Source: Bilabrum cf. latius
Lineage: Eukaryota
Assembly: GCA_965178125.1 (NCBI GenBank)
Contig: OZ237759.1
Coordinates: 620,001 to 684,000, forward strand
Reading direction: 5' to 3'
DNA: 64,000 nucleotides
In this document: one piece after another, positions 2,637-63,560 of the stretch
Position numbering within the stretch: the stretch's first letter is position 1
How the letters are laid out: every line of letters begins with the position of its first letter
Position numbers and translations under genes: made by a program
The notes under the pieces: model-generated
Seen by the model: the letters and a program-made list of their open reading frames with translations, nothing else
Databases searched by the model: none
What the model was told of the DNA's origin: nothing

Positions 2637-5600
2637 ATGGCTGGGGCGCTCGTCGGCGTTGTAGACGACGTCAAAATGAATCAGAATCTATCATCTTTGA
2701 TCGGGTCGATGAGCAGCGCATTAGTTCGAGAATGGCTATCGATGGGAAGGGGCAGTGACGCAGTCGGAAGTAGCATTGGAAGTCTAGAAGTTGTCAAGCA
2801 GCAGGTCGGCAGGCTATCGCAGCCGGTGTCCAGGACTCGCGCCTTTATGCGGGCCTGTAGGCAAGTCAGCAGTCCTATAGAACCGTAGGTACATTCCAGG
2901 GCGGTGCCTCCTCCGCCCTTGCAAGGCAATGCAGCGGCTGCTAGCGGGATGACTCCGCCTCCTGGTGCCGAGCAGTATCGAACTATGCTTCGCAATGCTC
3001 TGCACCCAGTGGATCAGAAGGGCAGCAATTCCGCTGATGCCCCTATCGATACAGTAGGAGGTGGAAATGAGCAGTGCGAGCGCGTCATCAGAGCAGATGT
3101 CCTCTCCCCGCAGATGCTCGCGGATCTCCTCCGGCTGCAGAGCATCGCCGGCCGTTCGTCCGACCCATCCGAGGTTGCAACCGATATTGGGCTGACAGGG
3201 GCCGAGCTCGCTGCTAGGTAGCTGCTCTTGGCTTGGGGAACACACATAGCCCCGGGGGGTACAGTGCTCGCACAGCGAATGCGAGCACTGGGCCGAGCAA
3301 CTGCTCCATTGGGCGAGCAGGACCAGGGAAGTAGCCTGTGCCTGGACTGTTGCAGGGAACAAGGGGCCCCATATACTCAGTAGGACCAGCTGCCTGATGC
3401 ATACCTTCTCGACGCCGAGAGGTTCCGCTCAATGCGCGGCGCCGGGCACCCTGTCTCGGCTGTCCTGCAGCACGCCAGCCCCGCCCCGCCCCGCCAGGGC
3501 CACCCAATGCCCTCTCTGTTCCCTGGGGCAGAACCGTCGGTTGCAACCGCTTTGGGGTACACGCAAAAGTGTGACGAGTGGTCCATGGTGGTGCTGCCGT
3601 AGGACTCGGAGCCGATCCACGAGCTCGTGGGCCGGCTGGTGGTGCCGTGCACCGCCGTCGAGCGAGCCTGCCACGCGGGTGTGACGAGTGCCCCGAGCAA
3701 CGCCAGCGCCAGCGGTCGAGCGACGGCCATCGCCAGTGCCCTCGGTGAGGTGGCCAAACTGGGAGAGCTTTTGGCCGGCAGGATCGGCGAGCACGCGTAG
3801 AAGCTATCCAGCGGCACAAGGGGCGATGCCGCTGGCCTGCCTAGGTTCCGCAGCCTATCGCGCGGCGCCGCAGGTTGGTTGGAGGACCCCGCCACGCAAC
3901 CGCTGGCTGGTGATACCGTGCACGATGGAGCGAGCACCACCGGTGTGACGAGTGATGGCACTCCAGGGTTCGATCCCGCGACTGCGCCCTTGGACCCGTC
4001 CGGCACCTCCAACTCCCCTGCGGGATTCGATCCCGCGACCCACGCCTTGTCAGCCGGAGCGATTGCCAGAAGCCCCGATGGCAGCGATGGTGCCGGCACA
4101 TCAGCTGGCAGGAGTAGGAGCCCTTCTGACCTGAGATTGGGCCCCGTGAACAGCGACGGGACCTCCACCATGGCACCTCCGGACGACGTGGCGTATTACG
4201 CCGCACAGGGCCTAGGCGCCGCGCTTTTGCAGCGTAGCTCAGGTTCCGCAAAGTAGCACTCGTCATACGGAAGCAGAAGCAATGCCCGGAAGAACCGGCA
4301 CAGGCACTCGTCACACAGCAGCGCACACGCGGCGGGTCGTCACGTCCGGAGTCACACCCACGGAGCCAGACACGCACTCAGTCACGCGCGTGGCCACTCG
4401 TCACTCGACCACCGGCAAGCCGACGAGCCAGCACCGCTGGAGGCAGGGAGTCAACAATTCGGCGGCGCGACCGCTGCCGGCTCACAAGAAGCGGATGTTG
4501 CTTCTGCTGCGACCGACGATGCTGGGATCGAATCGGCAAGCAGTGGCACTGCAGGTGATGCAAAGGAACCGACCACCGCCGGCGCGCAGGAAAGCACGCA
4601 GCAGCCCGAGGATGGACCCACCCCTGATCCGATCACCGATCCTGATCCGATCACTGATCCTGATCCGATCACCGACCCTGATCCGATCACCGACCATGAT
4701 CCGATCACCGACCATGATCCGATCACCGACCATGATCCGATCCTGGCCAGGATGCAGGAGGCCATGCGGAAGAGGCAGGAGGACCCCCTCATGCGGCAGG
4801 CACTCCAGGAGAGGGAGGAGCAAAAAAAGGCAGCCATGGGGCAGGCCGCGGCAGACGTGGCCAAAGCCGTGCAGCTGGTCAAACAGGCGATCCAAAGTGC
4901 AACGGATACCGTCCGGCATGACGGAGCCGCTGCACTCGCTCGCATCTCAAGGGTGGCCAAAGAGGCAGGTAGTGCGGCGGAAGGGGCCGCGCAGTGGTCC
5001 AGGCATTACGCGATTGAGGCATCGATCGGAGCCAGGGAACAACGCGAGAAGGCCGGGGAGCTCGGCGATGCTTGGGCGGTAGACGGCGCCCGCAGCGGCG
5101 CAGGAGCCCAGCAGCCGCACTCGTCACAGCTGCTGGTGTGCCCGCTGGAGCGGCTGGCGGAATGCACAGCTGGAGGTTGTGCAGCTGCCCAAGGCCCTCA
5201 TACAGTCAGCCCTGACGCGGCCGCGGAGGCCGTGGCGGCTGATGCTGCGGGTCGGGCCTGCCAGTGGGCGACAGCAGCGCTTGACCATGCGTGTGACGAG
5301 TGCGATGAGACAGCTCGAACGTTCGCCGATGGGTTTGCTCGTGCGGCCCAGGGGGTGGTTGAGACGCTCTCGCTCGCTCAGAAGCAGGTGCGCGGGGCCG
5401 TGCTCGGTTCCAGGGAACAAGACGGGTTGATGGCGAAGACGACCACACTGGACAGCGTGCTTCGGTTTCGTAGCGAACCATCCTCGGGCGCCGTGACGAG
5501 TGCGATGGACGGATCGGAGCAAGACTCGGAGATCGCCGGTATGGCACGGTGGATGTGCGGCGCGGAATGCGGTGCACCCAGCGATTTGCCCGCCACCAGC

Positions 5601-6393
5601 ACACCACATGGAGAGCAACATAGGTTCGCGAACGTTCCTCAGACCCCCCCTGCCTCGCTCCAAGGCCTCGTTGAGGATCTTCTGCTTGCCGCGGATCTCG
5701 GTGCGGGGACGGTGCTGCAGGCCTGCGAGCAATTGCGGGAGGGGAGGCAGGAGATGCGGTGCCCAGCAAGGACTGATGGTGTGACGAGTGGTACGGATGA
5801 CAAGCAGGATCGGGCACAGCAGCAAGAAGGGGCTGTTGCGCCTGCGCATGTGGCACGACAGGAGAGCGGCGGGTCGCGGCTCCGATCGGATGATGAGGCA
5901 TCGCTTCGGGCGATCGTCACCACGTGGGAGGATCGGCTCCGAGCCGTGCTTCGGGGACGGTTCGGCGACGAACGTTCGCTGAGCGTGGGAGTGGCCGCGG
6001 CCGTGGGAGGCGGCAGCTCAGGCATCGATGGGGAGGGCGGGACCGCGGATCCGATGGCAGCTGCGTCTGCCGGGGCCGAGGGCCCGCAGGCAATGCAGTT
6101 CCGCAGCCTGCGCGGCGCCGCTACCACCGTCTCATCCGCCAGCAGGGAACAAAGGTCGGCACCGCCTTTGGCCACCCCGAGGCACTCGTGGCAGGACCCC
6201 TCCCTTGCCCCGGCCCTGGAGGCGCTGGGGCTCGGCGGCGGCACCTCCGGAATCGAGGACCTGACTGCGCACTCGCCACACATGGGAATCACGGGTGCTG
6301 GAGATCGGATCAACTTGGAGGGGGGCGTGCTACCGTCCTGGGGAAGATCGGGAGGAGGAATGCAGCTGCTGCAGCAAGGGTCGGCAGATGTGG

Positions 6394-6443
<50 letters not shown>

Positions 6444-7397
6444 TAGACCGAGGACTAGACCGAGGATGATACGGTGAAGATCTAGCAGGACAAGGGTGAG
6501 AATGGTGCCAATATTGGAATGGAAGCCAGGCAGGTGCAAGATCAAGAGCAGGAGCAGGAGCAGGATCAGGAGGAAGAGGAAGAGGAAGAGGAGTTCAGTT
6601 CGGAGACGGCACCAGCCGATGACGACCCCAGCACATCTGTGAGCTCTGGCTCCACTACAGAAAGTCCCCTCATTGAGAAAGATGCGAGGCCGGTACATGG
6701 GGCCATGGCCGAGCCCAGCGATGAACGCTCTTCGTATGACGAGTGCAGCGGGGATGCGCTGATGACTGCGGCCCCTTCCGTGGAGGTGGCGGCGTGCCTG
6801 GGGAGGGCGCACCGGGGGGTGCTCGGGGGTGGTGACCCCACCCTGGGGGGCGCCAGGGGTCTCCTCAGGGGTCAGGCGGAGGCGTTGCACCGGGAGGGGG
6901 AGGCCCTGTGGAGGGCGCACGGGGCACTCAGGGAACAACTGGCGCGAGCACACGGTACCAGTCCAAGCGCAGGTACGCGTGGTATTGCGAATGATGACGC
7001 AGCCGTCTCCAAGAAGAAGAGTCCAAAGGCTGCACGTAGTAGCCTCAGATCGAGCAGCGTGCTGCTGCGTCCTTAGGGGAAGGGGTCCGGCAGTGCTGCG
7101 GAACATCTTGCCACCGCCCTGCGCGGAGCCGACGACGTGCTTGCGCAGAAGCAGGAGCTTGACACTGCTACCGAGGATCAGCTGCAGAGCCGGCCCGCGG
7201 GTGAGTGCGAGCAGCTGCGCTCGGCTGCGTTGATGTGCGAGCAGCTGTGGACAAGGGCGTGGGGTGTGTCGCACGAGTGCTCCGCTGGCGACTCGGAATC
7301 GAGCAGCTGCTCGCCCTTGTCTCCTGCTCGTTCGGCTGTGCAGCACGCGCAATGCGAAGCCAGGCAGCGCCTTGCCGAGCTGCTGGGCGAGGATTGA
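2637..7397 (+). CDS. Large low-complexity/coiled-coil hypothetical protein (~1590 aa with TAG read as sense); 5' end uncertain
   Basis: ORFs 2637, 2904, 3879, 4752, 6519 and 7137 share one frame, broken only by TAG (2886, 3219, 3381, 3600, 3798, 4254, 6444, 6456, 6483, 7074); ends TGA 7395-7397. Possible upstream exon ending 2474 (GTAAG donor 2475, CAG acceptor 2564). Confidence 0.75.
4623..4742 (+). repeat. 18-bp coding tandem repeat (PDPITD/HDPITD, ~7 copies)
   Basis: Unit (cct/cat)gatccgatcaccga(t/c) visible directly. Confidence 0.9.
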
Positions 7398-8521: not shown

Positions 8522-10768
8522 TCAATCGCTCGATTTCTTCCCCGCCTCCTCCTTGGCCATCTCTCTGGCCTCTGACGACACCGCAACATCCTGCAGCCTC
8601 TTGCGCATCTCGGCCTGCATGGTCTTCACCGCCTCCTCCACGCTCTTCTTGTTCCTCAGGGCAGCCCCCAGCGCGCTCGTGCCCATGAGCACGACCTCTA
8701 CTTCGGGCACCACGCCCTTCCACTTCGCGTCTTCGTCGCCTGCAGGCAACGGCGGGGTGGAATCGCCACCAGCACCGCTCGACGCGGCGCCGCCATCTGC
8801 GGAACCGGCCCGGGCCCGCTTCAGGTAGGCCTTTACCTCCTGCAGGGCGGCCACGGCTTTGCCCACCCCTTCCACCCTTGCGGCACTCGTGCTGCCGTCG
8901 CTGCTGCTGCTGGAACCCATAAGTCCACCCAGCCAACCTCCCGACGAGGAAGCCTCGTCCTCGCCGGCAGGCACGGCCAGGAGAACCGCCCTCGCCACTT
9001 CCTTGGGCAGGCCAAGGTCCACCAAGACCGCCTCATCCGCGGGGGAGGGCCCCAGCGGCTCGTTCCACATCTGCTGCATGGCGCTCGACAGCACGCCCAG
9101 CTCTTCCACCAGGCAGGTCCGGAGGGTCCTCAGCTGCACGACTCGATCCGTGGCCTCATCGGACGCCTTCAGCAAGGCGCCAGTGTCAGCGGCGGGAGCG
9201 GAAGATCCGGAGCCGGAAGCAGCTCCTGCGGCAGTGGCAGAGGCAGGATCCTCGGGATCCTCGCTGCTGGTGGCGGCGCGCAGAGCCTCGGACGCCTTCT
9301 CGGCGAGCTCCTTGGCCCGGTTCATCTGCACCGTGGCCGCACTCATCACACGCTGGGTCTCCGTGTACCTCATGCTCAGGCGCGCGTTGGCCTCGTCCGC
9401 CTCTGCCACCGCCACGGCGATCACGTTGTTGCTGACACTCGCGGTGTGCCCCGCCTCCCCCGCCGAGGCGCCACCGTCGCCGTCCCCGTCAGCACCCCCT
9501 GCCCCTGCGCCCGACCCCGAGCTCGACGGTTCCGCAGCACCGCTCTCCGGTGCCGCGCTCGAAGCAGCGATCGGAGCTGATGCCTCACCGCTCGCAGCCC
9601 CTGCAGCTTCGGCAGCACCACCGGGTGTCGTGGATGCACCGCCGGACGCTTCGCCCGCGGCCATCCTCTGCTTCTTCTTCCTGGCCCTTTCCTCGAGACG
9701 TTTCCGGGATTCTTCCGAGAACATGGACGCGGTCAGCCTCTTTTCCTCCTGCAGAATCCTCTGCTTGCCCTGCTCGAACCGCTCCTGCACCGTCATGGCG
9801 GCTTGCTTCTGCTGCAGCTCGAGGAATTGCTGGGCCTCCCGCAGCTGCTTCTTCCGGTCTTCCTCCTCGAGCGCGGCCCGCTGCTCCTCCTGCTCTTGCC
9901 TTTCCAGTTGCGCGGCGATGATCTTGTTCTGCGTTTCGGCCGCGAGGGACTCGAACTTCTCCTCCCGCTTCCTCAGGCGATCGGCCAGACGCTCCTGCAC
10001 CTCTTTGGAGGTCATCGTAGGCTTGGGGCAGGGAATCATGTCGCTCCACATCCAGGGGAGCAGCTCCGGGTCGATGCTCATGTCGTCTTCATCGATGGAA
10101 CGGATCTTTGGCTGCGGGGCCGATTTCTTGGCTGCCCCAGCTCCCGCGCCCTTGGCTTTACCCTTGGCTATTGCGGCCTCCGCCAGCTCCGCAGTTTCCT
10201 TTTCCTTCTCTGCGAGGACCGTGGGGTCCTCCCGCAGCTCCCACGGCGGCAATGGCGCGGCGCCGATCCGTACCGAATACGTCGTCTCGGGCTCGAGCCC
10301 CTGGAGGAAGCACTGCCGCGTGCGGCGCATGTCGCACGCTCGAGGGGCGCTAAACAGGCCGCCCCAGATCCAGGAACTGTAGTCGGTCTTGCGGTACTCG
10401 ACGCGATAGACGATTGTCTTGCCCTTGTATGGATCTTGGTCAATCTCCGCCTATAGCTTTGCGACCTTGGCTTTCTTGAACTTTGCCCTCTTGGACAGAG
10501 AGCGGTGGTAGAAAGCCTGGCCCGGCAAGCGCCAGCGCAACTTGATCTCCGTGTCGGAGCGAACATCAAAGTCGACTGAATCGGGTTTGATCTGCAAGTC
10601 CTTGTCTGCATCTAGCAGCTTTTTCATGCCCGCCACATATGCCTCGCGCTCTTCACGCCTGCGGCGGCGAAGGTCCCGCTCCTCGACATGAGACAGCTTG
10701 CGAGTTCCTGGCGCTGCTGCATCGCGCTTTTTAAGTTGTGCAGCGAGCTCAGAACTCGGTGCGGCCAT
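8522..10768 (-). CDS. Fibronectin type III domain plus coiled-coil protein (748 aa)
   Basis: ORFs 10768-10451 and 10330-8522 are in frame and joined through TAG 10451; FN3 signature spans the TAG (SDTEIKLRW...IVYRVEYR...LQGLEPETTYSVRIGA); E/Q/K/R-rich coiled coil follows; TGA stop. Confidence 0.8.
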
Positions 10769-11246
10769 GGCTTAAGCGATAGTGTCTGCGTGATTGTGCG
10801 AGAATCCAACGTGGTAGGATCGCTGTGGCTGCCATAAACTCAAAGTGGCAGGACTCCAACCAAATCATCCCGACAGGCACGTCCATACATAAAGAATCAT
10901 GCGATTGGAATGAGAAGGCTAGTTTACTTTCAATCAGGGCACGATAATTCACGGAATCCTAGAAACTTCTTGACTACACCGGTAGCATAGCACGCATACA
11001 CGCGAGGCCCTGATCAATGCGCCAGGAAAAGCTGCATTTCACTTACTCAGATACGCGTGCAATATAAATGGCTGCCTTTTGTGGCAACTACAACGAACGA
11101 AAGGCAGGCTTGTGTGCCTGGCTATTCCTGGCCAAGTCTATCGGCGCCGCGCATCTGGTTCCGTTCCACGAACGTGGGCCACGTTACATGGCCAGCCCAA
11201 GCAAATCTGTTCATGGGTTTCAAGTTAAACGTACCAGAGACGGGCA

Positions 11247-12975
<1,729 letters not shown>

Positions 12976-13253: not shown

Positions 13254-15043
13254 ATGATGGACGAACTTACCGGCTTCTTCAGGAAAACCTTAACGGGAGA
13301 TGACCATGCATCGGTCCGCGATTTCGTTCGCAAAGCATTTCGCAAGCGCCTAGTGGGCGACGAGGGCCGCTCGATTCGTGGCACAATGTGGAACACGTTC
13401 CAAAGGTGAGCTTCTTGGCTGCAGATTGCACTACCAGTTGACAAATAAGCGTGCAGATCAAAGCTTCCGATGCATTAATATGCATTGACCGATCTCTTCG
13501 TCTTACACGTGTGTGAAATCTTGATGTTGGATCTATCAAGTCTGCCAATAGTCTGGCAAGTCCATAGTTCTACCAAGCTCCAATGTATCGCAGGGAAGAC
13601 GTAGTTCTCTTGCGTGACAAAATATCCTTCTTCCTCGGGGTGGTCAACTTGCTGGTTGCAGAGCTGGTGCTCGTTCAGTTTCCCGACTACTTCCCGTGGC
13701 TATTCTCGTTCTGGTTTCCGACGCTCATGGCTCTGCGCCTGTACTACTACTCCGAGGCCCACTACGAATTCTTCCTGATCGATTACTGCTACTTTGTGAA
13801 CTTTATTGGCCTGGTGCACGTCTGGATCGTGCCCGAATCGCCCTTCGTGTTCGGAATGTTCTATGCTGCCGCAACCGGTCCCGTGTGCGTGGCCATCCTG
13901 GCGTGGAGAAACGCCCTAGTGTTTCATTCGCTGGACAAGCTGACCACCCTCTTCATCCACTCCTTCCCAGCCATGCTCGCCTTCTCCCAGCGGTGGCTCG
14001 CCAACACGACCCACTCGAGGATTTGCAGGGATGGAGAGGCCGAGTACAGGCCGGGAGACGGCATGCTTTGGGGGACCGTGTACTTGTTCCCTGGGGAACA
14101 GCATGTGCTCGGCGGCGAGGCGGGCGAGATGGAGACGTGCGCGCCCCCGCACTCCGCCATGGCCCTGATGATTTCCGGTCTGGCCTATTACGCCTTTTGG
14201 CAGGTGGTCTACCTCTTCATCACCGAGGTCGTCTTCTCCACGTACCTCAACCAGCACCCTGAAGAGCTCACCTCGATGCGGTACTTCATCGAGAGGGGCC
14301 AGAAGACGGCGCTGTACCGCCTCGTGACGAGTGCGATGGCCTCCATGGGGTGCATGAAGCGCGGGGAACAACTCAAGCTGGGCGAGGCCAGGACACTCGT
14401 CACATTCGTTCTGTCGCAGCTGCTGTACACGATCATCACCATGCTGCCCCCGCTCCTTTTCCAGGGCAACATATGGCTCTCGAGCCTCTGGCTGCTGGCC
14501 ATCGGCCTCAACGCCGTCTGGAACGGGTCCACCTACTACATCCAGATCTTCAGCAGGCGATACGCCGAAAATTTCAGCGAGATGTTTGTCAAGCAGGGCA
14601 AGGGCAGGAGGGATCGGATCGTGGAGGAGGCGGCGGCGCAAGGGTCCAAAACCGAAGGTATAGACAAGGGCAAGGGCAAGGGCAAGGAGAAGCCGAAGAG
14701 GGAGGCCGACGCTGAGGGTTCCTCGGTGGACGGCTCCAGTGTGACGAGTGCGGGAGACCGGGACGGTGCCTCGACGATCTCACACTCGTCATCCTCCGCA
14801 GCGGGCGCCAGGGAACAACGGGATGGCGGGGGAGACGACTCCTTGTCCGGGGCACGAAGCGAGGTATCATCCGTGGGCAGCGGCTCGGCAGGCGCGAATG
14901 AGGAGGACGCCGCCGATCGCGCGTACAGGCGCGCATTCGTCATGGGGATGGCGGCTGCAGCTGTGATGCAGGAGAACTAGGGGGATGGGGGCGACGGGAC
15001 ACCGAGCCTCAGCGGGGCCTACAGTCCAGACGGAGCGAACTGA
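13254..15043 (+). CDS. GPC1: Glycerophosphocholine acyltransferase (Gpc1/DUF2838 family); exons 13254-13405 and 13594-15043
   Basis: DKISF, DYCYFVN, GP...WRNALVFHSLDKLTTLFIH and WNGSTYYIQIFSRRY match the Gpc1 family; phase-2 intron 13406-13593; reading through TAG 14978 gives TGA at 15041-15043. Confidence 0.85.
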
Positions 15044-16363: not shown

Positions 16364-16491
16364 TGCTAGTGGGTAAAAGTATAATTTAAGCAAGAATTGT
16401 GGCAGGACTTTGCGATCCGGCTGCTCAGATGTGGCGAAGGCGGTCGATTTTCATTCAAATTTGCAGCCCACTGAAGTGCAACTGCAACAAA

Positions 16492-24995: not shown

Positions 24996-25096
24996 CCTCT
25001 TCTCTCTCACCTCGGAGCCAGACCCCCACTCAATCGTGAAGTCAACCCTGGATCAGATCGAATCCAATTGATCTTCTGCGTGTCCCCCGCCTACCC

Positions 25097-35107: not shown

Positions 35108-35184
35108 CGGTTTGCATTAAATGAAGAAGAGGAAATAAACGGCATTTTGCGGCAATGCGACTTCAGGGCGAGCATTTCGCATCA

Positions 35185-44994: not shown

Positions 44995-45035
44995 TTAGAG
45001 CGCAGCCAGAACTCGATCTGGAACACAGTTAGAGC

Positions 45036-45083
<48 letters not shown>

Positions 45084-49500: not shown

Positions 49501-49890
49501 GCCGGATCGACAGTGGCTGTACGGAAGCAGGTGGTTGCTAGCCTCCCGGACAGAACCAGCGTTCCTGATGCAAACTGGCTGGCAAAGGCTGCAGCAAAGC
49601 GCGGGATTGTGATCGTCGGTGTGCCGCCGTTGGCCAAGCTGCCCCACGCCAGGAACATGGCCTTGCTGCTGGCAGGGCAAGTGCTAGCGCAGGCTGGACC
49701 GAGCTGTCGGCTGTTCGCTGGAAGCGGACCCGCATCGACGTGCGACGCGAGCTGCGTGCTTGAGGCAGCTCAGGGGATCACACGGGCCCGTGGGGCAACC
49801 ATGGCGTCGCTGCTTGCCAGGTTGGAAAGGATGAAGGTGCTAAAGTGCGCCGATGGACCGTCGCGGGAGGCACTGCGGCAATTGCTTTGA
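46561..49890 (+). CDS. GCNA/ACRC-like SprT-domain protein lacking catalytic residues (~1110 aa); 5' end uncertain
   Basis: DDLARATYEEFNRAVFGGQLP...RLKHAMLRAMCTTAGWLLDG...WKCTAC...CSCG parallels the GCNA SprT domain and Zn ribbon; one frame with TAG at 46600, 47515, 48166, 48334, 48373, 48937, 49138, 49234; TGA stop. Confidence 0.72.
48625..48900 (+). repeat. 66-bp coding tandem repeat (DRAVQQTHIGSSARPGSSTWRV, ~4 copies, one of 63 bp)
   Basis: Seen directly. Confidence 0.92.
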
Positions 49891-50409: not shown

Positions 50410-53400
50410 ATGGCAGCGATGCAGGGCCAGAAGAGAAGGTGAGACGCCCCCGGTTGCACAAACCAACTTGAAGTCCGTCTGCAATACGGGACAGCCCGCG
50501 AGCGGCTGCGGCTGGTGCGTGGAGCTATCCCCAAACTGGCCGCTACCAATACCATCCGGGCACTTGCACAGTCCAAACCAGACTACAACCAGGAAATGCA
50601 AGCCATGAATACCCACTTCACAAACGCAGCAAGCGACAGAGGCGACCAAAGGCGCTTCCCACGAGTCTAGATCCGCTGTTCTCGCAGCTGGTCCAGGCTC
50701 TTTCCAAAAAGGACTGCACCGGGAGCGAGGCACTTTGGGCGCAAATCGTCACCGAATGCACCGACTTGGACTTTGACCAGACCATGGTACTGAAGTACTG
50801 TCCTAGGGTGGCGCGCGAGACTGGCGTAAGTGCTTCTGCGTCGACCTTGGCCCAAGGCAACGCTACCTTCCAGTTCCAGTTGCGGCATGATCATGATGAT
50901 GCGAACGATTTCGATGATGAAGACACAAACTGTTCCAAATCGCAACACTTCTGTACGGTGCCTGGCCTGGTTGATGCTGTCGCTGCTGCTGCCGTTGGGC
51001 AGAGTGGCGCGGCCAGCAAGGAGCTCCCGGCTACATCTCCAGGGCTCGAAGTACCGGAGGCCCACTTACCGGCACCAGAAGCGAACTCTCACCCTCCCAA
51101 CCTCCTTCGCACGGAAGATCTTCGCTAGTGTTGGACCACGCACCTCACCAGGTTGAGCTAGATTCGAAGGGTGAAGACGTCGACGTTCTCAGGCGAACGA
51201 AGCATTCCCGCAAAACCGAAGGTAAGCCACCAAGTCATGCGCGCTGAGGCGTAGTTTGACGTGCCACTGTCGAAGAACGACCTAAAAATCGGGGCTAGTT
51301 GGTCGCGCGCAGCCGTACCAAGGGCTGCGAGTGCTGTTGCGGCGAGGTGTTTCGCTGCCTCTTCCGCCATATTGGTACTGGAATAGTGCACAAGCGCATT
51401 GCACGGGTCTGTCGCGAAGAGCGGGGCCATTTGCTCGCTTTTCACGGCTTGATTGATTGACTCGCGAGTAGCCGCATCTGCGTCCCGCAAAGCCTGCAGG
51501 CCAGCGCTACGCACTTCTGCTACTAAACCTTCCATATTCAACTTTAAATTTCTTAACGAATTATATATAAAGACTGTGAAACAAAGTACGTCTCTATAGC
51601 TCTGCTCACAACTGAGCTGAGCATCAACGGCCGTAGTTCCGTTTAGAACCCTCTATCTTCGCGAACCTTCGCTTCGAATTACCAAAACGCAGGATGATCT
51701 TACTGTGGTGCATCTGGCAGCAAATCTGCCAAACACATCAGTACTGGAGATTCTCTTGCAGGCAGGGGGAGATGCGCACCAGCCCAGCAGGCGAGCAGTT
51801 GTAAGATGAGCTTCACTCCAGTCTGCGCTATCTCGGCCCGTCTCGTTGCTCATGCATCGATTTCCTTGCTACGACCCAGAGTTTCTCCACGCATCGCAGC
51901 ATCCGCGGTACCCTGTCCAGCTCGCTGCGAAAAATGGTATGTGGCGAGCAGTCAAACTCCTGCTTGACTCTGGAGCGCAGGAGTCCGTGTACGCCAAAAC
52001 GAACGTAAGTGCGGTGTATCCGAAAGGGTTGATGCTCGATCATGCGATGCTGTCAATATACTGTAATGAAGATTGCGCTTCTTGTGCCTGCTCGCTCCCA
52101 CAGTCTGCCGGGAGGCCGTACGATGAGTGTGCCGACGAACCGCTCACTTAGGCCATCCGAGGACACCATCCGGAAGCTTGCATGGTGCTAGTGCAGTATG
52201 GAGCTCCATTGAGCATGTTAATTAGCGTGAGGAGTCTAGCATGGAATATACTTGGCTCACATCACATTGTCATGTTCGTGATTGCAGGGCAACGTCCACC
52301 GCATTGCATATCATTTGATGCATCCCACTCTATTGCAGATTTCTCAATCAAAGAGCGTGTCGCTGCTGCAGTTTGCAGTGCATGTGGCATAGACGACTGC
52401 GTCGCCTGTCGCGTCCTCCGACGCATAGTTGATCGTCAGCGCACTGAGCGCCAGCGGAACCTCGGACCGGGCTGCCTTCATTCGAACCATCGTGGAAGGG
52501 CTGCCGGAGGGAAGGCGGACCGAGCTCAAGGAGGCGATGCGCGATGTGGTTGCTGTGTCATCAGGGGGTACAGGAGCTGCTGCCGGAGCGGCTGCTGGTC
52601 AAGCGGCAGTGGCACCAGGTGAGGGAGCAGATGCGTCGGGCATGTCCTCGGGCCTGGTAGCAGGTGCTTCAGGCATATCTTCGGGCCAGGCAGCAGGTGC
52701 TTCAGGCATATCTTCGGGCCAGGCAGCGGCCGACTCGGTAACTTCTAGCCGAAGATCCGCCCAAACGGCCCAGTCGCCTTCAACACTCAGGAGTGGGCTT
52801 GATGGACACGTGCGGCCCGGCAGCTTGGCACCTGACTCCCGTTCTAAACGGTCAAGGGGTAGTGGCCGGGTCCTTACAGCTGATGCTCGCTTCATGCCAC
52901 GCAGTGGTGGCAAGACCACGGCCAGCCTATCGTCAGGTATGGGCTCTATCAGTGGGTCTGGCCATGCACGCGGGGCCTCTCTGTAGGGTATGGCAACTAC
53001 AGCCGTTGCCCCCACCCGTTCGGGCAGTTCAGGATGCGCCCAACCACCCGGCTCTGTGATACTTTGCTCCGAAGATAAGGGCCAGGATAAGGGGCGAGGA
53101 ATGCCAGAGCAAGGTGTCTTAATTCATGATGCCGACAGTCGTAGTGCAAGTCGCATGGCATGCGACGTCCCGAAGTAGGCACCATCACAAACGAGAGACT
53201 TGAACTAGCGAGGTTCAACCAGAAGGCCTTGCATCGCGTCCAAGCGCACGAGGCCAGGCTAGGGGCCTTCCTCGGGATCCAATGCGGGGTGGAAGCCGGG
53301 AAGGCTCGATTACAGGCCTTCCTCGGGATCCAGTGCGGGGTGGAAGCCGGGAAGGCTCGATTACAGGCCTTCCTCGGGATCCAGTGCGGGGTGGAAGCCG

Positions 53401-56400
53401 GGAAGGCTCGATTACAGGCCTTCCTCGGGATCCAGTGCGGGAGACTCTCCTAGCGGTGTTGTGCTATTTCATGGACCACGCGATAGGCCCCTGCCGAAGG
53501 CAACCCATCACACCAACCTATAGTCTTTAGGTGGCACGCGCAATGGCAAGATCGCTCGACCTCGACCAAGCTGTGAACCTCATACCAGGCCGGCTGCTGC
53601 GGGTGCGAAGCGTGGCAGACCCGAGAACCCGGCTTCAGATCAGGACGCAAAGAGGAGGAGGACGCTGCGCGGGACTAGCACGTCTGGACATGCCTCGAGG
53701 ATCGACAGCGACAGCGACAGCGATGTTGAACTTGTCTCAAGCAGTCCAGCTCGAGGACGCAGGGACGCAGCGAGTCGTGCCCGCTTACAACCCCTGGAGG
53801 GTGACAGCAATCCTGGCGTTGACTCTTCATCATCCAGCCCAGCATCCGATCCAGATGTAATTTCTGCCATGTACGCTGCTGAACCTGGCCTGAAAACACT
53901 CTGCAGGCACCCGATCAGCAGCACAGTCATTCGAGAGGTACGGCAATCAACCGAGGCACAAGGAAGTCAGATGATGCAGTCTGGAGGTGCGAGTGGGTCA
54001 GACCAATCTTCCGGTCTAGGGCGTGATCCTGCACGTCTTCCAGACGATTTAGACAATGCTGGAAAATATGGAACCCTAGACAGCAGCAGAATTCCAGACT
54101 ATCAAAGAACAAGCAGCCATGGCCAGCCAGACGCTGCCCGCCAGGCCAAGGCACAGCAAGACGCTGCCCACCAGGCCAAGGCTCAGCAAGACGCTGCCCG
54201 CCAGGCCAAGGCACAGCAAGACGCTGCCCGCCAGGCCAAGGCACAGCAAGACGCTGCCCGCCAGCCCAAGGCGCAGCAAGACGCTGCCCGCAAGGCCAAG
54301 GCACAGCAAGACGCTGCCCGCCAGCCCAAGGCACAGCAAGACGCTGCCCGCCAGGCCAAAGCGCAGCAAGACGCTGCCCGCCAGGCCAAGGCACAGCAAG
54401 ACGCTGCCCGCCAGGCCAAGACACAGCAAGACGCTGCCCGCCAGGCCAAGGCACAGCAAGACGCTGCCCGCAAGGCCAAGGCACAGCCAGACGCTGCCCG
54501 CCAGGCCAAGGCACAGCAAGACGCTGCCAGCCAGGCCAAGGCACAGCAAGACGCTGCCCGCCAGGCCAAGGCACAGCAAGACGCTGCCCGCCAGGCCAAG
54601 GCACAGCAAGACGCTGCCCGCCAGGCCAAGGCACAGCAAGACGCTGCCTGGCAGGCCAAGGCACAGCAAGACGCTGCCTGGCAGGCCAAGGCACAGCAAG
54701 ACGCTGCCTGGCAGGCCAAGCCACAGCAAGACGCTGTCCGCCAGGCCAAGCCACAGCAAGACGCTGCCCGCAAGGCCAAGACACAGCAAGACGCTGCCTG
54801 GCAGGCCAAGGCACAGCAAGACGCTGCCCGCCAGGCCAAGGCACAGCAAGACGCTGCCCGCAAGGCCAAGGCACAGCAAGACGCTGCCCGCAAGGCCAAG
54901 GCACAGCAAGACGCTGCCCGCCAGGCCAAGGCACAGCAAGACGCTGCCCGCCAGGCCAAGGCACAGCAAGACGCTGCCCGCCAGGCCAACGCACAGCGAG
55001 ACGCTGCCCGCCAGGCCAAGGCACAGCAAGACGCTGCCCGCCAGGCCAAGGCACAGCAAGACGCTGCCCGCCAGGCCAAGACACAGCAAGACGCTGCCCG
55101 CCAGGCCAAGACACAGCAAGACGCTGCCTGGCAGGCCAAGGCACAGCAAGACGCTGCCCGCCAGGCCAAGGCACAGCAAGACGCTGCCCGCCAGGCCAAG
55201 ACACAGCCAGACGCTGCCCGCCAGGCCAAGGCACAGCAAGACGCTGCCCGCCAGGCCAAGACACAGCAAGACGCTGCCCGCCAGGCCAAGGCACAGCAAG
55301 ACGCTGCCCGCCAGGCCAAGACACAGCAAGACGCTGCCCGCCAGGCCAAGGCACAGCAAGACGCTGCCCGCCAGGCCAAGGCACAGCAAGACGCTGCCCG
55401 CCAGGCCAAGACACAGCAAGACGCTGCCCGCAAGGCCAAGGCACAGCAAGACGCTGCCCACCAGGCCAAGGCACAGCAAGACGCTGTCCGCCAGGCCAAG
55501 ACACAGCAAGACGCTGCCCGCCAGGCCAAGGCACAGCAAGACGCTGCCCACCAGGCCAAGGCACAGCAAGACGCTGCCCGCCAGGCCAAGACACAGCAAG
55601 ACGCTGCCCGCCAGGCCAAGGCACAGCAAGACGCTGCTCGCCAGGCCAAGACACAGCCAGACGCTGCCCGCCAGGCCAAGGCACAGCAAGACGCTGCCCA
55701 CCAGGCCAAGGCACAGCAAGACGCTGTCCGCCAGGCCAAGACACAGCAAGACGCTGCCCGCCAGGCCAAGACACAGCAAGACGCTGCCTGGCAGGCCAAG
55801 ACACAGCAAGACGCTGCCCGCAAGGCCAAGGCACAGCCAGACGCTGCCCGCCAGGCCAAGGCACAGCAAGACGCTGCCCGCCAGGCCAAGGCACAGCAAG
55901 ACGCTGCCCGGCAGGCTAATGCAGATCATTTCGCGGCAAAGAGGCATCTTGATCGCATGCAGGCTGACATTCTTTCTGAGTTCAAGGCAGGACCAAGACC
56001 AAATGCTGCCAATAGTGCTATGGTGAATGGATCGCGCTCTGGGTCGGGTAGCATTTTGCCAAGAGCTCATCGTGCATCCGGGATCCATCGCAGGCATAGT
56101 ATGAGAGGGCGAAGTCGCAGGCTTTTTGGCATACTTCATCAGCCATGGGTGCAGTCTGTTGTGCGAAGCATGCGCCGGCTAGATGCAGACACTGGACCGA
56201 TTCAAAGGAAGGTTGAAGGCATGGCTCGCGATTACTTGCGAGAGCTTCAGAATCACGGGACTATGGCAGTCGCATTTTTGGCTTACTTGTCCCGTCCCAG
56301 TGCTGGTGAGCTGGATGGGATAGTCCATAACCATCTGGTCTCGTTGCACCCAAGGCTTCATGACCAAGCTAAGGCCACCCAGACTACACCGGAAGTCTTG

Positions 56401-57828
56401 GATGCGGTACGAAATGCTTGGTAGCAACTTGCGCATGCTGAATCCGAGGAGTGGGAGGGAATTGTAAAGCGACACATCTAGCTTGCTTTGGAGCCCGTTC
56501 GGATGCTCCAAGACCAGCTGAATCAGCTGGGTATGAGAATGCGGACCGACTTTCAATGGGTATGCGCCCCACGTCCGAACAGTGCATTTCTTCGTAGGCT
56601 GCGAGACACAGCGCGAAGCATGTATGCGCGCGACCGGTCAGGACATGCTGCGCAGTCTCAGCCAGGGGCAGCCTCCGCGCCCGCACCGGCACCAGCACGA
56701 GCACCTGCACCTGCACCGGCACCGGCACCTGCACCTGCACCTGCAAATACACCTGCACGACCCACTACGAGTGCAGTTCGGTCAGCATTGAGTAGGCTGC
56801 CTCGACCCAGCGTGGAGGGCCGTCGCAACGCCATGGCAGCAGCAGCAGCAGCTGCTGCATCAGTCGCTACAGGCGGCCTCGTGAGACCATTCCATGCAAT
56901 CGGGGAAGCAGAAACCGTTGCTGTGCCCTCATCAAGCGGTGTGATTCCTGGACATGCCGAGAGAGAACAGCTTGGCGTTGGCCTTTCTGCGTCATCTGAT
57001 AAAGAGCAGCCGATGCAGTTGTTCGGCACGGATCCACCGGTCTCTAGTGGGGGTTCTCTCCCGCAAGATTATGCAGCTAGCGTCGACGGAAGACCGCGTG
57101 TACCCCTTTATCTGGCTGCAGGTGCTACGGACTCCTTATTAGATGTAACTGGTGCTGATTTAGAGCCTGCTTCCTCCCATGCCCCGTCAGTGGAAAGCCG
57201 AACCGTATAGTCATGGTTTACATCCGAATCTGCACTGCAAGATCATGGACTGGGACCTAGCAGCCAGAGAACGGGAGCTTAGCTGCATGTGCAGGGTGCA
57301 CAGGCCGATCACCGCAACGAAGCTGAACCTCGCTACCGTGATCGTCATCCATTCGCTGGTACGAGTGGCACAGGGGATGGCGGAGGAGAACGTGCTGACG
57401 GCCTCACAATGCCAGGAATACCGAGTGGTGCCGGGGGCCTTCCGCCGCTGCCTATCCTCGGCCTTCCACCGCTGCCTACCCTCGGCCTTGCAGCGAGCCC
57501 ACGTCCCCCTGGAGGTGCAGCGTCGTAGGGTTCCTGTGACGGCGCCAGACTGTTTCAAATTGGAGGTCGAAGCGCTGAGAGTCCCGGTCTGCACGGTCCT
57601 GGAGAAGCCGCAGGGCCTGCACCGTCTGATGCAGCAGGAACTGCAGCTGCAGCAGGTGCAGTCCCTCAGGTAGGTACTGACCGCGGTCAACCGAGAAAAG
57701 AGAGCGCAGACGAGCCAAAGCACAGCGTAATCAGACGGCAGGGTCCAGCCGGAGGCAAGCCTGACGTCGAAGGCACTGGATCTAGATCCGGGGTAGCAGG
57801 TGCTACCCATAGGTAGCAAGGTGTTTGA
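50410..57828 (+). CDS. Ankyrin-repeat protein, paralog 1 (~2016 aa); exons 50410-50438, 50630-50825, 51693-51800, 51900-52004, 52104-52226, 52339-57828
   Basis: Ankyrin-like TVVHLAA..VLEILLQAGGD, YPVQLAAKNG..AVKLLLDSGA, EPLT*AIRGHHPE..VLVQYGA; all five introns GT-AG, phase-compatible and at the same positions as in paralog 2; last exon broken only by TAG; TGA 57826. Confidence 0.75.
51089..51535 (-). CDS. Possible small gene nested antisense in intron 2 of ankyrin paralog 1
   Basis: ATG 51535 just after an AT-rich tract (51540-51590); helical-looking MEGLVAEVRSAGLQALRDAD...; with TAG as sense ends at TGA 51089, or may splice at GTGAG 51148. Confidence 0.4.
53262..53441 (+). repeat. 51-bp coding tandem repeat (~3.5 copies; PSSGSSAGWKPGRLDYR)
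   Basis: Seen directly. Confidence 0.9.
54124..55923 (+). repeat. 30-bp coding minisatellite, ~60 copies of QQDAARQAKA
   Basis: Unit cagcaagacgctgcccgccaggccaaggca with sparse recurring variants and no indels. Confidence 0.98.
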
Positions 57829-58717: not shown

Positions 58718-61700
58718 ATGCTTCGAACGTGAGTACGCGACAATATAAACCCCGAGCTTGCACCGGGCAGCTTCGGAGCGCAAACCTTGGCGGGGTCATG
58801 TGAATGGTGTGCAGCAGGCACCGACATGCATGATTGAGGCTAGCGTCACGATCGATACTAACCGCACAAAATACTCCTACGCGCCGCAGCAGAAGAGTGC
58901 GGAAGCCCCGAACCTTGACACAGGAACAACTCCAACTCCACACGAAGCTACGCGTGGCACTGTCCAAATCGGACTGTGCCCCATCCGAGGCTGACTGGAC
59001 CGATGTGAAGAAGCAGCGTGACATTGCGGTAGTGCTGCAATATAAGACAGACGTGCTCTTGGGGACAAAAGTAAGTGGTGCAAGCCGTGCTTGGCCACGC
59101 CTAGCTAGGCTTACTGCAACCTAGCGAAGCTGGATACTTATCAAGATGAAGATTCAAACAATCCGGATATTTATTTCAAAATAGTAAAGCAGGTGACCGA
59201 AGCAAGCCTGATGCATCTTGCTGCAAAATAGCCAAATTGGGAGGTTCTTTAGCGTATTATCGAGCTTGGTGGCGATGCCAACTAGGGTAGTCATCATCCA
59301 AATGTGAGCAACTTGCATGTCACGAAAACTGTTGAGATCATTATTCGCAGGGCGGTTCGTTGGTTCCAACAAACTAGTTCTGGCTGTTACTGAACCATTT
59401 AATACGAGCAGCATCCCTTGTATCCGATCCAGTTCTCTGCATTCGAGGGTCTTTGGAGGAACATTGAGATTCTGGTTAAAGGTGGGGCGAAGCCGCTCGT
59501 ATATGGACAAGTGAGATTCAACAGGTTCATATACCGAACCTGCAGAATCCTTCTCAATATATCTAGTTGTAATCTTGCTCCGTGGTTCCGCAGATGTACG
59601 ATGAGTGTGGAGACGAGCCGCTCACGTTGGCCGTCAAGGGCAGCCATCCAGAGGCATGTGCTATTTTGGTGCACCTGGGTGCCCCTTTGGACATGGTGAT
59701 TAACGTGAGCGATCCTATATTACTATGTATGGAGTTTGAACTATGTGTGGACAGCATTGAAGTGTCAGTCACTGCTACCATCCCGGCTGATTGTCTTGGC
59801 TTTGTGTCCGCAGAGATCGCAATCAACGAAGATCACACTCCTGGATCTCGCCATTGGTCGCGTTGCAGTCAAGCGCCAGGAAGCACGCAACTTGCCGGGC
59901 TCCGTTGCTAGCCAGCTTGAAGAGGCGGATATCATTCTGAAAGCCATGCGAGCAGCGAATGCACTGCCTGGTGAACAGGGAAAGCCAAGCTCTACACGGT
60001 TCGTGCGTGCCATTTTGGAGGGGCTCCCAAGCGACAGGAGTTCCGAGCTCGTATTGCACCTGCCAGAGTACTAGACAGAGACAAAGGCATACGGGGCCGC
60101 TACGGATGGATCGTCGTCGTTGTCATCTTCCTCATCGGCAGCCTCATCAACTGCATCTAGGGCTAAACCTGAAGCGCGTGTAGCGGCGTTATTGTCGACA
60201 ATTTCGCCGTCCTCGTTGACTACAGTATCATCGTGCGCTAGATCATCAGTTCCAGTGATGGCTTCCGCCGGACCAACGCCTTCAACGGATGCAATCCCAG
60301 GAGGTATATTGGTCCGCCCAATGCCGCATGCCGATGGTGCTGCCATGAGCAGCAACAGCAGCAAACCTCAGACCGTGACAAATATGGATCGCGATAGATT
60401 ACCTGCAAAGAGCGCGCATACCGACTCCCGCGGCATGTTTTCAATTGGATCCAAGCGCAAGAGGAGCCTTGCCTTCGCCAGTAGTGAAAGGAAGCAACTA
60501 CTACCACATGATGATTCGAGTGAATAGGCAACCAAGGTCCCATCAAGCTGGGCAGCCGGGCCTGGTGCTTTCTCAAGAGAGAGGAAAGGTAGCAGCAGGC
60601 TTGCTATCACGGCCCCACCTGCTGGGAAATCAGGTAAAGCTGAAGCACAAGGTCTGGCGTCTTAGTCCAGCTACACGATGGCCAGCGCTGGAAGCCCGGT
60701 CATGAATGGCCATTCCGCCTCATTCAGCGACGTGGATGGACTTGCATCAGATGTTGAAGACGACAATACGGCCCATCAATTTGTCGACCGGTCTCATGGG
60801 TCAGCTGGACAGCTGTACTCTGGAGCTGGTCGCTCGAACTTTGCACCAGCCTGGCTCTCTACCCTGTAGGCCAACTGGACGCAATCGGCACAGAGAATGC
60901 TGCAGAGACAAAGAGACCTGGAGGAGGCCGCAGGATAGGAAGCTGCGCCAGCTGCAACAGGGTTATTGCGAAAGCTTCGTCATGTGGGCGACACGGAGGT
61001 CGCTCTAGTGAAGCAGCTATGCAGACACCAAGCTTCAGCGCTGGACCGCGTCGTTTATCGATAGCTTATCGAGCAAAATCCAACGTTGGAAAGCAAGAGT
61101 AGGAAACAGTCCAACTGCAGCCCGAGCGTTAAGTCAGTCGTCGCAGAAGGGTGGAAACGATGCTCCGATGCCGCTAACAAGCGGCTGCTCGACCGAGGCA
61201 CAGAATGCATGAGGGCCGCTCATCTCGAAATTGCACGCCTGGTCCAATTGTGCAGGTAGAACGGGGGCATCCCTGACGATATTATTGCTTTTTTGCGTGA
61301 TCCTGATCCACGCAGCCAACTGCTGGCCGAAATCCAGTCAAGGGCGCAGGTGACCTACGGCGCAAGAGACGAACACAACTCTGCTGGCAACGATGATACA
61401 AAGTCAGTTCCAATGGCGATGCAATAGGATATGAGGGTAAAACTGCTGGACGCTAGGCAGGGCATGCAACTGAAGTCAAGTTCAGTGACCAGGCACATTG
61501 GTATGCAGGGCGGCAGCCTTCGCCGCGATCCGTAGCTCCAGACGGTCCTGGCAGCTCAACGCGGCCCCGCGGCACTCATGGCCGGGACACCAACACCCTC
61601 CACCATAAGGGTTACTCCTATGGCCCCTTCAAAGGAACCACCAAGAGTTAGCCGAGTCGCACTCGGAGCCATTAGCACCAATGACGGCTCCGCGCAGTCA

Positions 61701-63560
61701 AGTGACATCACCAGTGGCAGTTCGTCTGGGGAGCCATACCGCGGAGTGACTGCTTCGCACCCTGCACCAGCCAGTTTCCAAGTCAGTACCGGCACGAGAT
61801 CTCGACCGGCTGCTCCTGTGAAAGAGGATTCAGACGGCGTTTCAGTTGTGCCTTCTGAGGAGGGTGACACTGAAGAAGACTCGGATGAAGACTCGAATGA
61901 AGACTCGGATGAAGACTCGGATGAAGACTCCAGTGGAGGCTCCGACGGCACTCTGGCCAAAGATTCAGCCGCGGTCCTGCAAACGATCAAAGCAAGGTGG
62001 CGCATTATCGCCAATCACATTCTGCCGAAGTGGGTGTCCGAGCAGTCGGCCATCTTGCAAGATGCCAGCGCCCCAGTGGAGAAATTCATCAGGAGACTCA
62101 TTCGGAAAGGCCGCCCAGCCGGGCCGCTGCTCGCGTACCTCATGCGGCCCAGTGCGCATGCGCTCGAGGATGCAATTTTTGTTCGACTCCACGAAAAAAT
62201 GCCGTAGCTCAACAGTGAGCCGCCGTTTGATATGAGTGGTGATGGACACCAGGTCATGGGGAAAAAAGAGAAACTTTGTGCGGACTGGATTCGACAACAC
62301 TGTTGCAGGGCCGACGCGAGTTCCCGTGCATGGCTAGAGCAAACTTTGACTGCGGTGAGGACTTTAATGTGTCAGCTTCAACTGTGCGGTCAGATGCCCT
62401 CTGCTGCCCTGGATTTCATATGCGAGCCTTTCCCTGACAGTGGGCTGCTGAAGAATGCTCGCACGATTGCATAGGAATGGATTCACCGCGGGACAACTGG
62501 ATTCCTCGGAGCCAACCAGGACCAACGCGCCGGTTCGTCTCTGAATGTAGAAGAGTCGAGATCAGAAGTGCCAGCGCTATCCTCATCACTAACACCCGCA
62601 TCTGCGCCAGCTCTGAACGTGCCGACTCGTCACATGCGGAGTGAAACGCAGTCAATCATGCCACGCCGGCTTCCATTGAGGCGCAGAGCAACCGGAGCAC
62701 CCAGCTCCACGGCCCATGGTGCGCGTACAAAAGTAGCTGTAGCCTGTCAATCTGCGCAAAGTGCTGCCCAAACGCTGGAATGTGCCGGATTTCAGGCTAA
62801 TACCGATGATACTAGAGCAAGACGTCAACGATCGGCCACGTCCTGTGCGGACACCGCAAGACATCAAGGATCAGCCACGTCCAGTGGGGACAGTGCAAGA
62901 CGTCACGGATCGGCCATGTCCAGTGGGGACAGTGCAAGACGTCAAGGATCGGCCACGTCCAGTGGGGACAGCGCAAGACGTCAAGGATCGGCCATGTCCA
63001 GTGGGGAAGTAGTTGAACCGCATAGCACCGTAATAATAAGCCGGATACCCATATTCAGGCGGGGCTCTGCGTAGGCGCTACCCGCTGCACGGCTTGTCGA
63101 CGAGATGGAACTGCACAAGGCAGCCCAGGGGTGCGTGGATCGGGATCAGGATGCGGATCCGGATCCGGATAGGCTTAAGTTTTGTCAGTAGTACCGCAGT
63201 AAGTTGGGGGCCCTTCCTTTGAACCGGGACGGTGAGAAGTCTGCTGCAGCTCCGGTCAAGGGAGTGAGCATGCAAGGAGTTGGAGATGCAAGATGGCGAG
63301 CTGGTGCAGTGCAGGGTCAATGCAGTGCCTGTGCAGGCAGCAGAGCCGAGCTTGAAGTGCAAAGGAACGCAATGGGGCACAGTGCAGCTGCCAAGATGAT
63401 TGCTGGAAATAATGCTCCCACAGACATGCAGCTTGCCACGTTCGACACGCGTGCGGTGTTAGCTGCAAGGGCAGCTGGGCACGGGGCCAACGTGCATGGA
63501 CCACGCGATGCTCAAAAGGCGATCGAAATGATAATTGCTGGTTTGGATGGAATCAATTGA
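58718..63560 (+). CDS. Ankyrin-repeat protein, paralog 2 (~1419 aa); exons 58718-58728, 58890-59070, 59193-59303, 59412-59510, 59594-59704, 59814-63560
   Basis: Exon-by-exon similarity to paralog 1 (ALSKSDC..SEA.W, HLAA..PN..VL..GGDA, HPLYPIQ, YDECGDEPLT); last exon joins ORFs 59736, 60120, 60678, 61578, 62232, 62568 and 63204 via TAG only; TGA 63558. Exon 1 is tentative. Confidence 0.75.
62814..63008 (+). repeat. 39-bp coding tandem repeat (ARRQGSATSSGDS, 5 copies)
   Basis: Seen directly. Confidence 0.9.

Follow-up and report, generated by a model that had tools for sequence, protein, structure and literature searches.

UAG as a sense codon, most likely for glutamine, at a nuclear locus of a GC-rich eukaryote

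Gene Content and Stop Codons of the Window

The stretch of DNA analyzed here, referred to as the window, comprises 64 kb (positions 620,001 to 684,000 of contig OZ237759.1), has a GC content of 59% and carries long open frames on both strands. Our subject is the codon UAG (TAG in the DNA), which a preliminary description, made from the letters of this stretch alone, had taken for a sense codon throughout the window. Sixteen gene frames were followed (Table 1). One of them is a cytoplasmic ribosomal protein gene, RPL8/uL2 (Pfam Ribosomal_L2_C, 6.7e-46), split by a canonical GT..AG intron, and because the window carries such a gene with such an intron, its origin is nuclear and eukaryotic, neither viral nor organellar. 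Several more long frames match no Pfam family.

The 16 frames hold 17,004 codons, among which TAG occurs 122 times and TAA and TGA not once, which bears out the preliminary description. Over the same intervals, the other five frames contain TAA and TGA at a combined 1.79% of codons, so that 304 would be expected in frame against the 0 seen. TAG, on the other hand, is equally common in frame (7.17 per 1000) and off-frame (5.65–7.65 per 1000). The chance of 2398 consecutive codons without TAA or TGA is P = 1.7e-19. The same asymmetry is visible in open reading frames (ORFs) of at least 300 amino acids: the standard code gives 22 (maximum 966), and reading TAG as sense gives 43 with a maximum of 2398, the longest ones measuring 2398, 1848, 1661, 1624, 1474, 1283 and 1153 amino acids. 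Reading TAA as sense (24 ORFs) or TGA as sense (73 ORFs) leaves the maximum at 966. The frames end in TGA in 14 of 16 cases and in TAA in the other 2. Three of the 16 genes are free of TAG, namely the RPL8 exons, the pyridoxal-phosphate (PLP) enzyme and the gene with a weak HhH match.

The TAG counts given earlier for single genes are reproduced (17 in PrimPol, 26 in the FN3/TM gene, 10 in the gene at 2637–7397, 8 in that at 46429–49890 and 6 in the fucosidase, with no internal TAA or TGA), and within the window the idea that TAA and TGA might be as frequent in frame as TAG is contradicted (0 against 122). In-frame TAGs fall within Pfam matches to GH29, ricin-B, fn3 and the UL52 Zn finger. Among the TAGs that had been singled out, those at 20644 (UL52-type Zn finger), 35992 (GH29), 10451 (FN3-like gene), 52149 and 59229 are in frame. 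Those of the helicase, at 27491 and 27446, are also in frame and lie between AAA_11 and AAA_12, but residues 864 and 879, to which they correspond, sit in a variable insert outside the conserved motifs. Two of the earlier gene labels find no support: the supposed ankyrin repeats at 51810–52619 reach 19.5 bits with Ank_2 where the Pfam cut-off is 27.3, and the frame at 59046–59390 is without any match; the frame at 46429–49890, called SprT-like, has no Pfam match at E ≤ 0.01.

Table 1. Gene frames of the window. X1 is a DNA run, X5 and X6 are runs with intron-skipping contigs, and L001 is a metagenome contig of a related species.
Gene	Position	Strand	In-frame TAG	End	Remarks
RPL8/uL2	1040..2032	-	0 in exons; the frame's one TAG is intronic	TGA	Intron 1531-1725; PDB uL2 alignments; joint 1530>1726 in X5 and X6, none in X1
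Long low-complexity gene	2637..7397	+	10 past ATG 2637 (11 in frame 2523-7397)	TGA	Intron 2475-2564 upstream
FN3-like/coiled-coil gene	8522..10771	-	1 (10451-10453)	TGA	X5 contig 8452-10785; L001 ortholog with 3 TAG-sense codons
O-acetylhomoserine sulfhydrylase-type PLP enzyme	11247..12545	-	0	TGA	Upstream introns 12459-12565, 12633-12865; Pfam Cys_Met_Meta_PP 3.1e-109
DUF2838/GPC1-type gene	13592..15043	+	1 (14978)	TGA	Exon 3′ of intron 13404-13591; Pfam DUF2838 6.7e-34
Gene with weak HhH match	15149..16450	-	0	TGA	L001 ortholog
PrimPol-like, UL52-type Zn finger	16390..20814	+	17	TGA	Pfam Herpes_UL52
Phage tail collar domain gene	22212..25052	-	4	TAA	Pfam Collar 6.2e-11
Superfamily-1 helicase (AAA_11/AAA_12)	25097..30082	-	15	TAA	Pfam
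Gene without known family	30278..32152	-	1	TGA	TAG 4 codons ahead of the end
Multi-pass membrane protein gene	32381..35107	+	4	TGA	
Ricin-B lectin and GH29 alpha-L-fucosidase	35125..37026	+	6	TGA	Pfam, PDB alignments
FN3/Cys-rich/TRP-like membrane protein (FN3/TM), 2398 residues	37792..44988	+	26	TGA	Pfam; fragments P0124 and P0125 of a relative; internal repeat
Gene without Pfam match (earlier SprT-like)	46429..49890	+	8	TGA	
Gene with long QAKAQQDAAR-type tandem array	52282..57828	+	13 (array 0)	TGA	Last TAG 4 codons ahead of the end
Paralog-like gene, family not recognised	59709..63560	+	13	TGA	

TAG Codons in Putative Transcript Contigs

Six sequencing runs cover the window, and the contigs of three of them (X1, X5 and X6) were aligned to window positions 1–20000, with 17609–17723 passed over as a repeat. 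Six segments are missing from contigs of X5 and X6, each bounded by GT..AG or its reverse complement (1531–1725, 2475–2564, 10786–11046, 12459–12565, 12633–12865 and 13404–13591), which are spliceosomal introns of 90–261 nt; contigs of X1 skip none of the six. As the X5 and X6 contigs leave out introns that the DNA run retains, we take them to be derived from transcripts.

The TAGs are retained in these contigs. One contig in each of X5 and X6 joins 2474 to 2565 and extends to 4708, including the TAGs at 2586, 2886, 3219, 3381, 3600, 3798 and 4254. Another spliced contig, joining 13403 to 13592, retains the TAG at 14978, and an X5 contig spanning 8452–10785 covers that at 10451. All three show 0 letters other than those of the window, and the same is true of every X1, X5 and X6 contig along positions 1–20000. 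In total, 9 of the 122 TAGs were seen unchanged, 8 in intron-skipping contigs and 1 in a further contig. Because these contigs carry the codons unaltered, splicing-out and editing are excluded for all nine, which bears out, for the codons checked, the expectation that the TAGs would be found unedited in spliced transcripts.

TAG Codons in Related Species

The PLP enzyme led to relatives: in the protein collection, P0004 (88% identity) and P0005 (97%) stand apart from all others (at most 67%). P0004 is encoded by the metagenome contig L001 (9030 bp, GC 55%), which is collinear with the window from 9.0 to 17.3 kb at a nucleotide identity of 68–83% over the matched pieces, mostly 72–79%. Under the standard code the FN3-like ortholog of L001 falls into two pieces, which become a single frame of 793 codons when its 3 TAGs are read as sense; the PrimPol fragment of L001 has another 2 TAGs. 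Three of the four complete genes of L001 end in TGA and one, its DUF2838 gene, in TAA.

Coding conservation persists beyond the TAGs. In the FN3-like gene, amino-acid identity between the window and L001 is 49/103 before the window's TAG and 267/574 after it, and mismatches by codon position (267/249/418) are in excess at the third. All 212 PrimPol codons that could be aligned to L001 lie 3′ of the first TAG; 56% of them are identical and the mismatches are distributed as 86/65/139. In the DUF2838 gene, the window's TAG at 14978 corresponds to CAG in the L001 ortholog. These alignments indicate that the TAG-sense trait is common to the window and the related species of L001. A still closer relative can be seen in the form of standard-code ORF fragments, P0124 (95% identity) and P0125 (90%), the latter of which stops exactly at a window TAG (FN3/TM residue 1040).

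Taken together with the domain scores presented below, the frame statistics, the TAGs in spliced contigs and the conservation past TAGs in a relative support the conclusion that UAG is a sense codon here and that UAA and UGA are kept as stops.

L001 also carries a tRNA-Arg(TCG) gene (2196–2267) between its HhH and DUF2838 orthologs. This gene is missing from the syntenic spot of the window, since ARAGORN finds no tRNA anywhere in the 64 kb.

Identity of the Encoded Amino Acid

Which residue UAG stands for was judged from three kinds of evidence, each of modest power. The first is what faces TAG in orthologous or paralogous positions. Between the window and L001 there are eight such positions: the residues opposite TAGs of the window are L, A, S, T and Q (CAG), and those opposite TAGs of L001 are Q (CAA), G and E. 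In the alignment to P0124, TAG 2076 is opposite Q and TAG 2079 opposite R; in the internal repeat of FN3/TM, TAG 1440 is opposite CAG (Q) and TAG 1354 opposite AAT (N). Over these 12 positions Q is found four times and eight other residues (L, A, S, G, T, E, R and N) a single time each. With Q at about 5% in the background, four of 12 has a binomial probability of about 0.002, and Q is the sole enriched residue; two of the four Q codons are CAG, one step away from TAG. Summed BLOSUM62 scores over the TAG-facing residues are 17 for Q, 6 for E, 4 for S, 2 for R, 2 for N, 1 for K and −20 for L.

The second is a Codetta-like test, in which nine or ten residues were put in turn at the TAGs of three translated regions and the Pfam scores compared; Q, K, T, E, S, Y, R, L and X were tried in all three regions, W in GH29 + ricin only, and A in fn3 and UL52 only. 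Bit scores were as follows: for GH29 + ricin, Q 131.0, K 130.2, T 129.6, E 129.3, S 128.9, Y 128.4, R 128.3, X 125.9, W 122.3 and L 122.0; for fn3, Q 87.2, T 87.0, E 86.8, K 85.9, Y 85.9, R 85.8, S 85.3, A 84.7, X 84.4 and L 83.6; and for UL52, R 27.7, E 27.3, Q 26.9, K 26.7, T 26.5, A 26.0, X 25.7, Y 25.6, S 25.5 and L 24.5. Q comes top for GH29 + ricin and for fn3 and third for UL52, and leads the sums (Q 245.1, E 243.4, T 243.1, K 242.8, R 241.8, Y 239.9, S 239.7, L 230.1). Third, as soft support, the residues neighbouring TAG are more hydrophilic than those around all other codon classes. A likelihood for the residue built on the composition of these neighbours was uninformative and skewed by tandem repeats, and of that analysis only the hydropathy ranking was retained. 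A single GH29 column, occupied by N or D in 4 PDB homologues, does not discriminate between residues.

From these comparisons, we consider that UAG most likely encodes Gln, a reading with moderate support under which TAG would make up 122 of 958 Gln codons (12.7%). The chief competitor is that UAG is sense but specifies another residue: Glu, Lys or Thr, or else Ser, as in Scotinosphaera, or Leu, as in the rhizarian exLh. The Pfam sums of E, T and K come close to that of Q, R and E head the UL52 column, and E, S, T, A, G and L are each seen once facing TAG. What makes another residue improbable is that enrichment opposite TAG is confined to Q, that the BLOSUM62 sum of Q is far above those of E, S, K and L, and that the contexts of TAG are so hydrophilic. 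On this evidence Leu is clearly rejected, since it scores below every other real residue in each Pfam test (in a near tie with W, which lies 0.3 bits above it in GH29 + ricin) and is 15 bits under Q in the sum. Ser, 5.4 bits under Q in the sum and facing TAG at one of 12 positions, is disfavoured.

Repeats, Overlaps and Placement of the Lineage

Some features of the genes in Table 1 deserve a mention of their own. The gene at 52282–57828 (plus strand) contains, at about 54000–56200, a tandem array of 10-residue units (QAKAQQDAAR and variants); the array holds long ORFs open in six frames and is the source of the longest standard-code ORF, of 966 amino acids. The array is rich in Gln codons, and TAG is not among them. 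An 18-bp tandem repeat (CCTGATCCGATCACCGAY), whose product consists of PDPITD units, occupies 4621–4740 in the gene at 2637–7397. There, at 4674, contigs of the DNA run and of X5 read "2 letters left out", and contigs break at 4708–4713. Since the window frame remains open for about 900 further codons, these anomalies are most likely repeat-length variation or assembly collapse. Within PrimPol, a (GCN GGN)n run at 17600–17900 encodes poly-(Ala-Gly), and DNA contigs break there too. The stop-to-stop frames of the HhH gene (minus strand) and PrimPol (plus strand) overlap head to head by about 60 bp (16390–16450); the common upstream region of these divergent genes is therefore very short. Directly 3′ of the FN3/TM gene, at 44989–45624, the plus-strand frame codes for a poly-Q/H run; on the minus strand, 44998–45588 is a 197-codon frame with a GC content at third positions of 0.83 and 0 TAG, and may be a small gene.

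The placement of the lineage was approached through three proteins. RPL8 gives about equal bit scores with animal and plant PDB chains; the PDB entry 11he_L8 was considered as this organism's own ribosome and dropped, being a mammalian-type L8 chain in which a duplicated segment scores twice. The best named matches of the PLP enzyme reach 62–65% identity and come from prasinophytes, a labyrinthulomycete, chytrids and bacteria alike. For the GPC1-type protein, 1.84 billion representatives yielded one match of 83% identity followed by one of 38%. Among the best 20 representatives, 5 are named, 4 of them after an organism (Cercozoa sp., Pinguiococcus, Tribonema and Cantina); all four are from the stramenopile, alveolate and rhizarian (SAR) assemblage; the best named match is a cercozoan metagenome-assembled genome (MAG) at 37% identity. 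An Atlas search returned DUF2838 clusters only. In a quick, unfinished IQ-TREE run with 61 rows (the window and 60 of 150 listed matches), the window and its relative P0126 fall on a long branch among unnamed sequences. Other proteins offered little: the helicase has just 3 weak matches in the protein collection, and no relatives were found for FN3/TM among metagenome contigs, for DUF2838 among genome contigs or for PrimPol among viral contigs. The window holds no Rfam family. The homologies point to an isolated, poorly sampled lineage; an affiliation with SAR would be only a lead, and a weak one.

Discussion

We propose that the window comes from the nucleus of a GC-rich eukaryote with few introns, in whose cytoplasm UAG is translated into an amino acid, most likely Gln, and translation ends at UGA, the main stop, and at UAA. 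We put the probability of this reading at about 80%. By analogy with other systems, the decoder of UAG would be a tRNA whose anticodon is CUA and which probably arose from tRNA-Gln(CUG). Such an anticodon would pair with UAG alone and not with UAA, and because the proposed tRNA reads nothing but UAG, the two codons would be able to part ways. In parallel, eRF1 would lose recognition of UAG and keep that of UAA and UGA. This scheme follows the proposals for Iotanema and ciliates found in the available text of PMC5304391, PMC9161772 and PMC11687900. The steps observed here are the presence of TAG in frame, its retention in mRNA and the coding constraint on the sequence downstream.

Several points weigh against the proposal and its parts. 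Neither the window, which has no tRNA genes, nor L001, whose tRNA content is limited to tRNA-Arg(TCG), offers a reader of UAG. Among the runs that cover the window none is listed outright as RNA; X5 is labelled "RNA? (probably DNA)" and X6 "RNA?", and their RNA nature was deduced from the joints. As to the residue, Q is ahead of E, T and K by only 1.7–2.3 Pfam bits and is outscored by R and E in the UL52 test, and 8 of the 12 residues facing TAG, over few positions, are not Q. Finally, TAG may have an extra terminator role at some gene ends.

This last point amounts to an alternative of its own, one compatible with the proposed code: UAG could be ambiguous, sense within genes and a terminator near the 3′ ends of some mRNAs. 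Dual-meaning stops exist, as with UAA in Blastocrithidia and the stop codons of Condylostoma. In the window, TAG lies 4 codons ahead of TGA in two of the 13 TAG-bearing genes (at 30290–30292 on the minus strand, in the gene at 30278–32152, and at 57814–57816 on the plus strand, in that at 52282–57828), where we estimate that about 0.4 would be expected by chance, and because of these two genes a residual stop role may persist. The cases are two only, though, neither C-terminus has a homologue, and the genes with conserved C-termini (RPL8 and the PLP enzyme) end in TGA; we regard an ambiguous UAG as unlikely, somewhat more so than a residue other than Gln.

A coupled code in which UAG and UAA (UAR) both mean Gln, UAA being just rare in a GC-rich genome, would have company, since UAR = Gln is reported for hexamitins and ulvophytes. 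In the window, TGA trails both TAA "terminators", by 30 and 7 codons, so readthrough would be possible in those genes. Against this stands the lack of any TAA in 17,004 codons. CAA accounts for 250 of the 836 standard Gln codons, and about 50 in-frame TAAs would be expected if TAA tracked TAG in the same way. ORFs do not grow when TAA is read as sense, and the DUF2838 gene of L001 ends in TAA. The absence of in-frame TAA despite the frequency of CAA makes the coupled code very improbable. Hardly credible, in turn, is the absence of any code change, with the TAGs as pseudogenes, unrecognised introns, RNA editing sites or assembly errors: nothing positive speaks for it beyond the fact that most affected proteins are of low complexity and without homologues, whereas just one of three stops is found in frame, TAGs are intact in spliced contigs with no joints flanking them, the DNA and transcript assemblies, which are independent of each other, differ in 0 letters, and conservation and third-position bias persist past TAGs in a relative that has the same trait.

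Reassignment nearly always affects UAG and UAA as a pair. Lineages in which the two part company show that termination in eukaryotes is able to distinguish them, and are natural models for the engineering of one-stop-codon systems. About five lineages, ciliate or not, are named with the UAG-only property in the available text of PMC5304391 and PMC11687900. For the present case there are a contiguous genome, data from transcripts and one or more related species, which would allow the suppressor tRNA, the changes in eRF1 and the date of the reassignment to be found. There is also a practical side: annotation with the standard code will fragment most long genes of this genome, as the ending of P0125 at a TAG exemplifies, and annotation should use TAG = Gln.

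As for novelty, the type of codon table is already known from Iotanema and some ciliates, and this lineage is possibly a further, unreported case. In the literature searched, to which subscription journals and supplements did not belong, no UAG-only code was found in a GC-rich non-ciliate beyond the cited cases. The sequencing runs are dated 2025, and the code may well be familiar to those who submitted them. The earlier suggestion of an independent, possibly undescribed case fits in so far as the residue is not Leu, the main stop is TGA, the window is not ciliate-like and the literature searched is silent, but the placement of the lineage, on which independence also turns, did not succeed. 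We advance only as a tentative idea, with the odds slightly against it, that the UAG-only (UAG = Gln) code had an independent and unreported origin in an isolated, poorly sampled non-ciliate lineage, possibly within SAR, and that it is old enough to span species about 25% diverged in nucleotides, with UAG perhaps keeping a residual stop role at some gene ends.

Comparison with Known UAG Codes

According to the portions available of PMC5304391 and PMC11687900, nuclear codes in which UAG alone is reassigned occur in the rhizarian exLh (Leu), Iotanema spirale (Gln), Scotinosphaera (Ser), Protocruzia and several phyllopharyngean ciliates (Gln or Leu), in agreement with the cases listed in the preliminary description. 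Amoeboaphelidium protococcarum, in which TAG and TAA both mean Gln (available parts of PMC6299283 and PMC5304391), resembles the window as a stop-to-Gln change in a non-ciliate and differs in its use of TAA, which is never in frame here (0/17,004). The green alga Scotinosphaera, known to us through a citation in the accessible text of PMC11687900, shares the restriction to UAG and probably a GC-rich lineage, but its UAG means Ser, a residue that in the window falls 5.4 Pfam bits and 13 BLOSUM units under Gln.

The rhizarian exLh is likewise a UAG-only, non-ciliate case, and, as far as the available text of PMC5304391 goes, UAG is rare or absent in its ribosomal protein genes, as in the RPL8 exons here; the best named GPC1 match of the window being a cercozoan MAG (37%) is a further likeness. 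The residue separates the two: Leu is lowest, or virtually tied with Trp, in the three Pfam tests, and faces TAG once in 12 positions.

The phyllopharyngean ciliates and Protocruzia that read UAG as Gln, in a code of the table-15 type by the portion available of PMC11687900, have a codon table like the one proposed here. Their genomes are another matter: with 59% GC, at least 64 kb in one piece, 16 or more genes on both strands and introns of 90–261 nt, the window is in our judgement unlike ciliate macronuclear DNA.

Iotanema spirale (Fornicata) also has the same assignments. From what is available of PMC5304391, UAG stands for Gln there and makes up about 8% of Gln codons, UAA and UGA are stops, and eRF1 carries a change from GTS to GGS. 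The window is alike in that UAG alone is reassigned, most likely to Gln, that it would be a minority Gln codon (12.7% if Gln) and that UAA and UGA are kept as stops. It differs in the preferred terminator, which is UAA for 104 of 119 Iotanema genes and TGA for 14 of 16 genes here, and, as a weak lead, in its best named GPC1 homologues, which belong to SAR and not to the metamonads.

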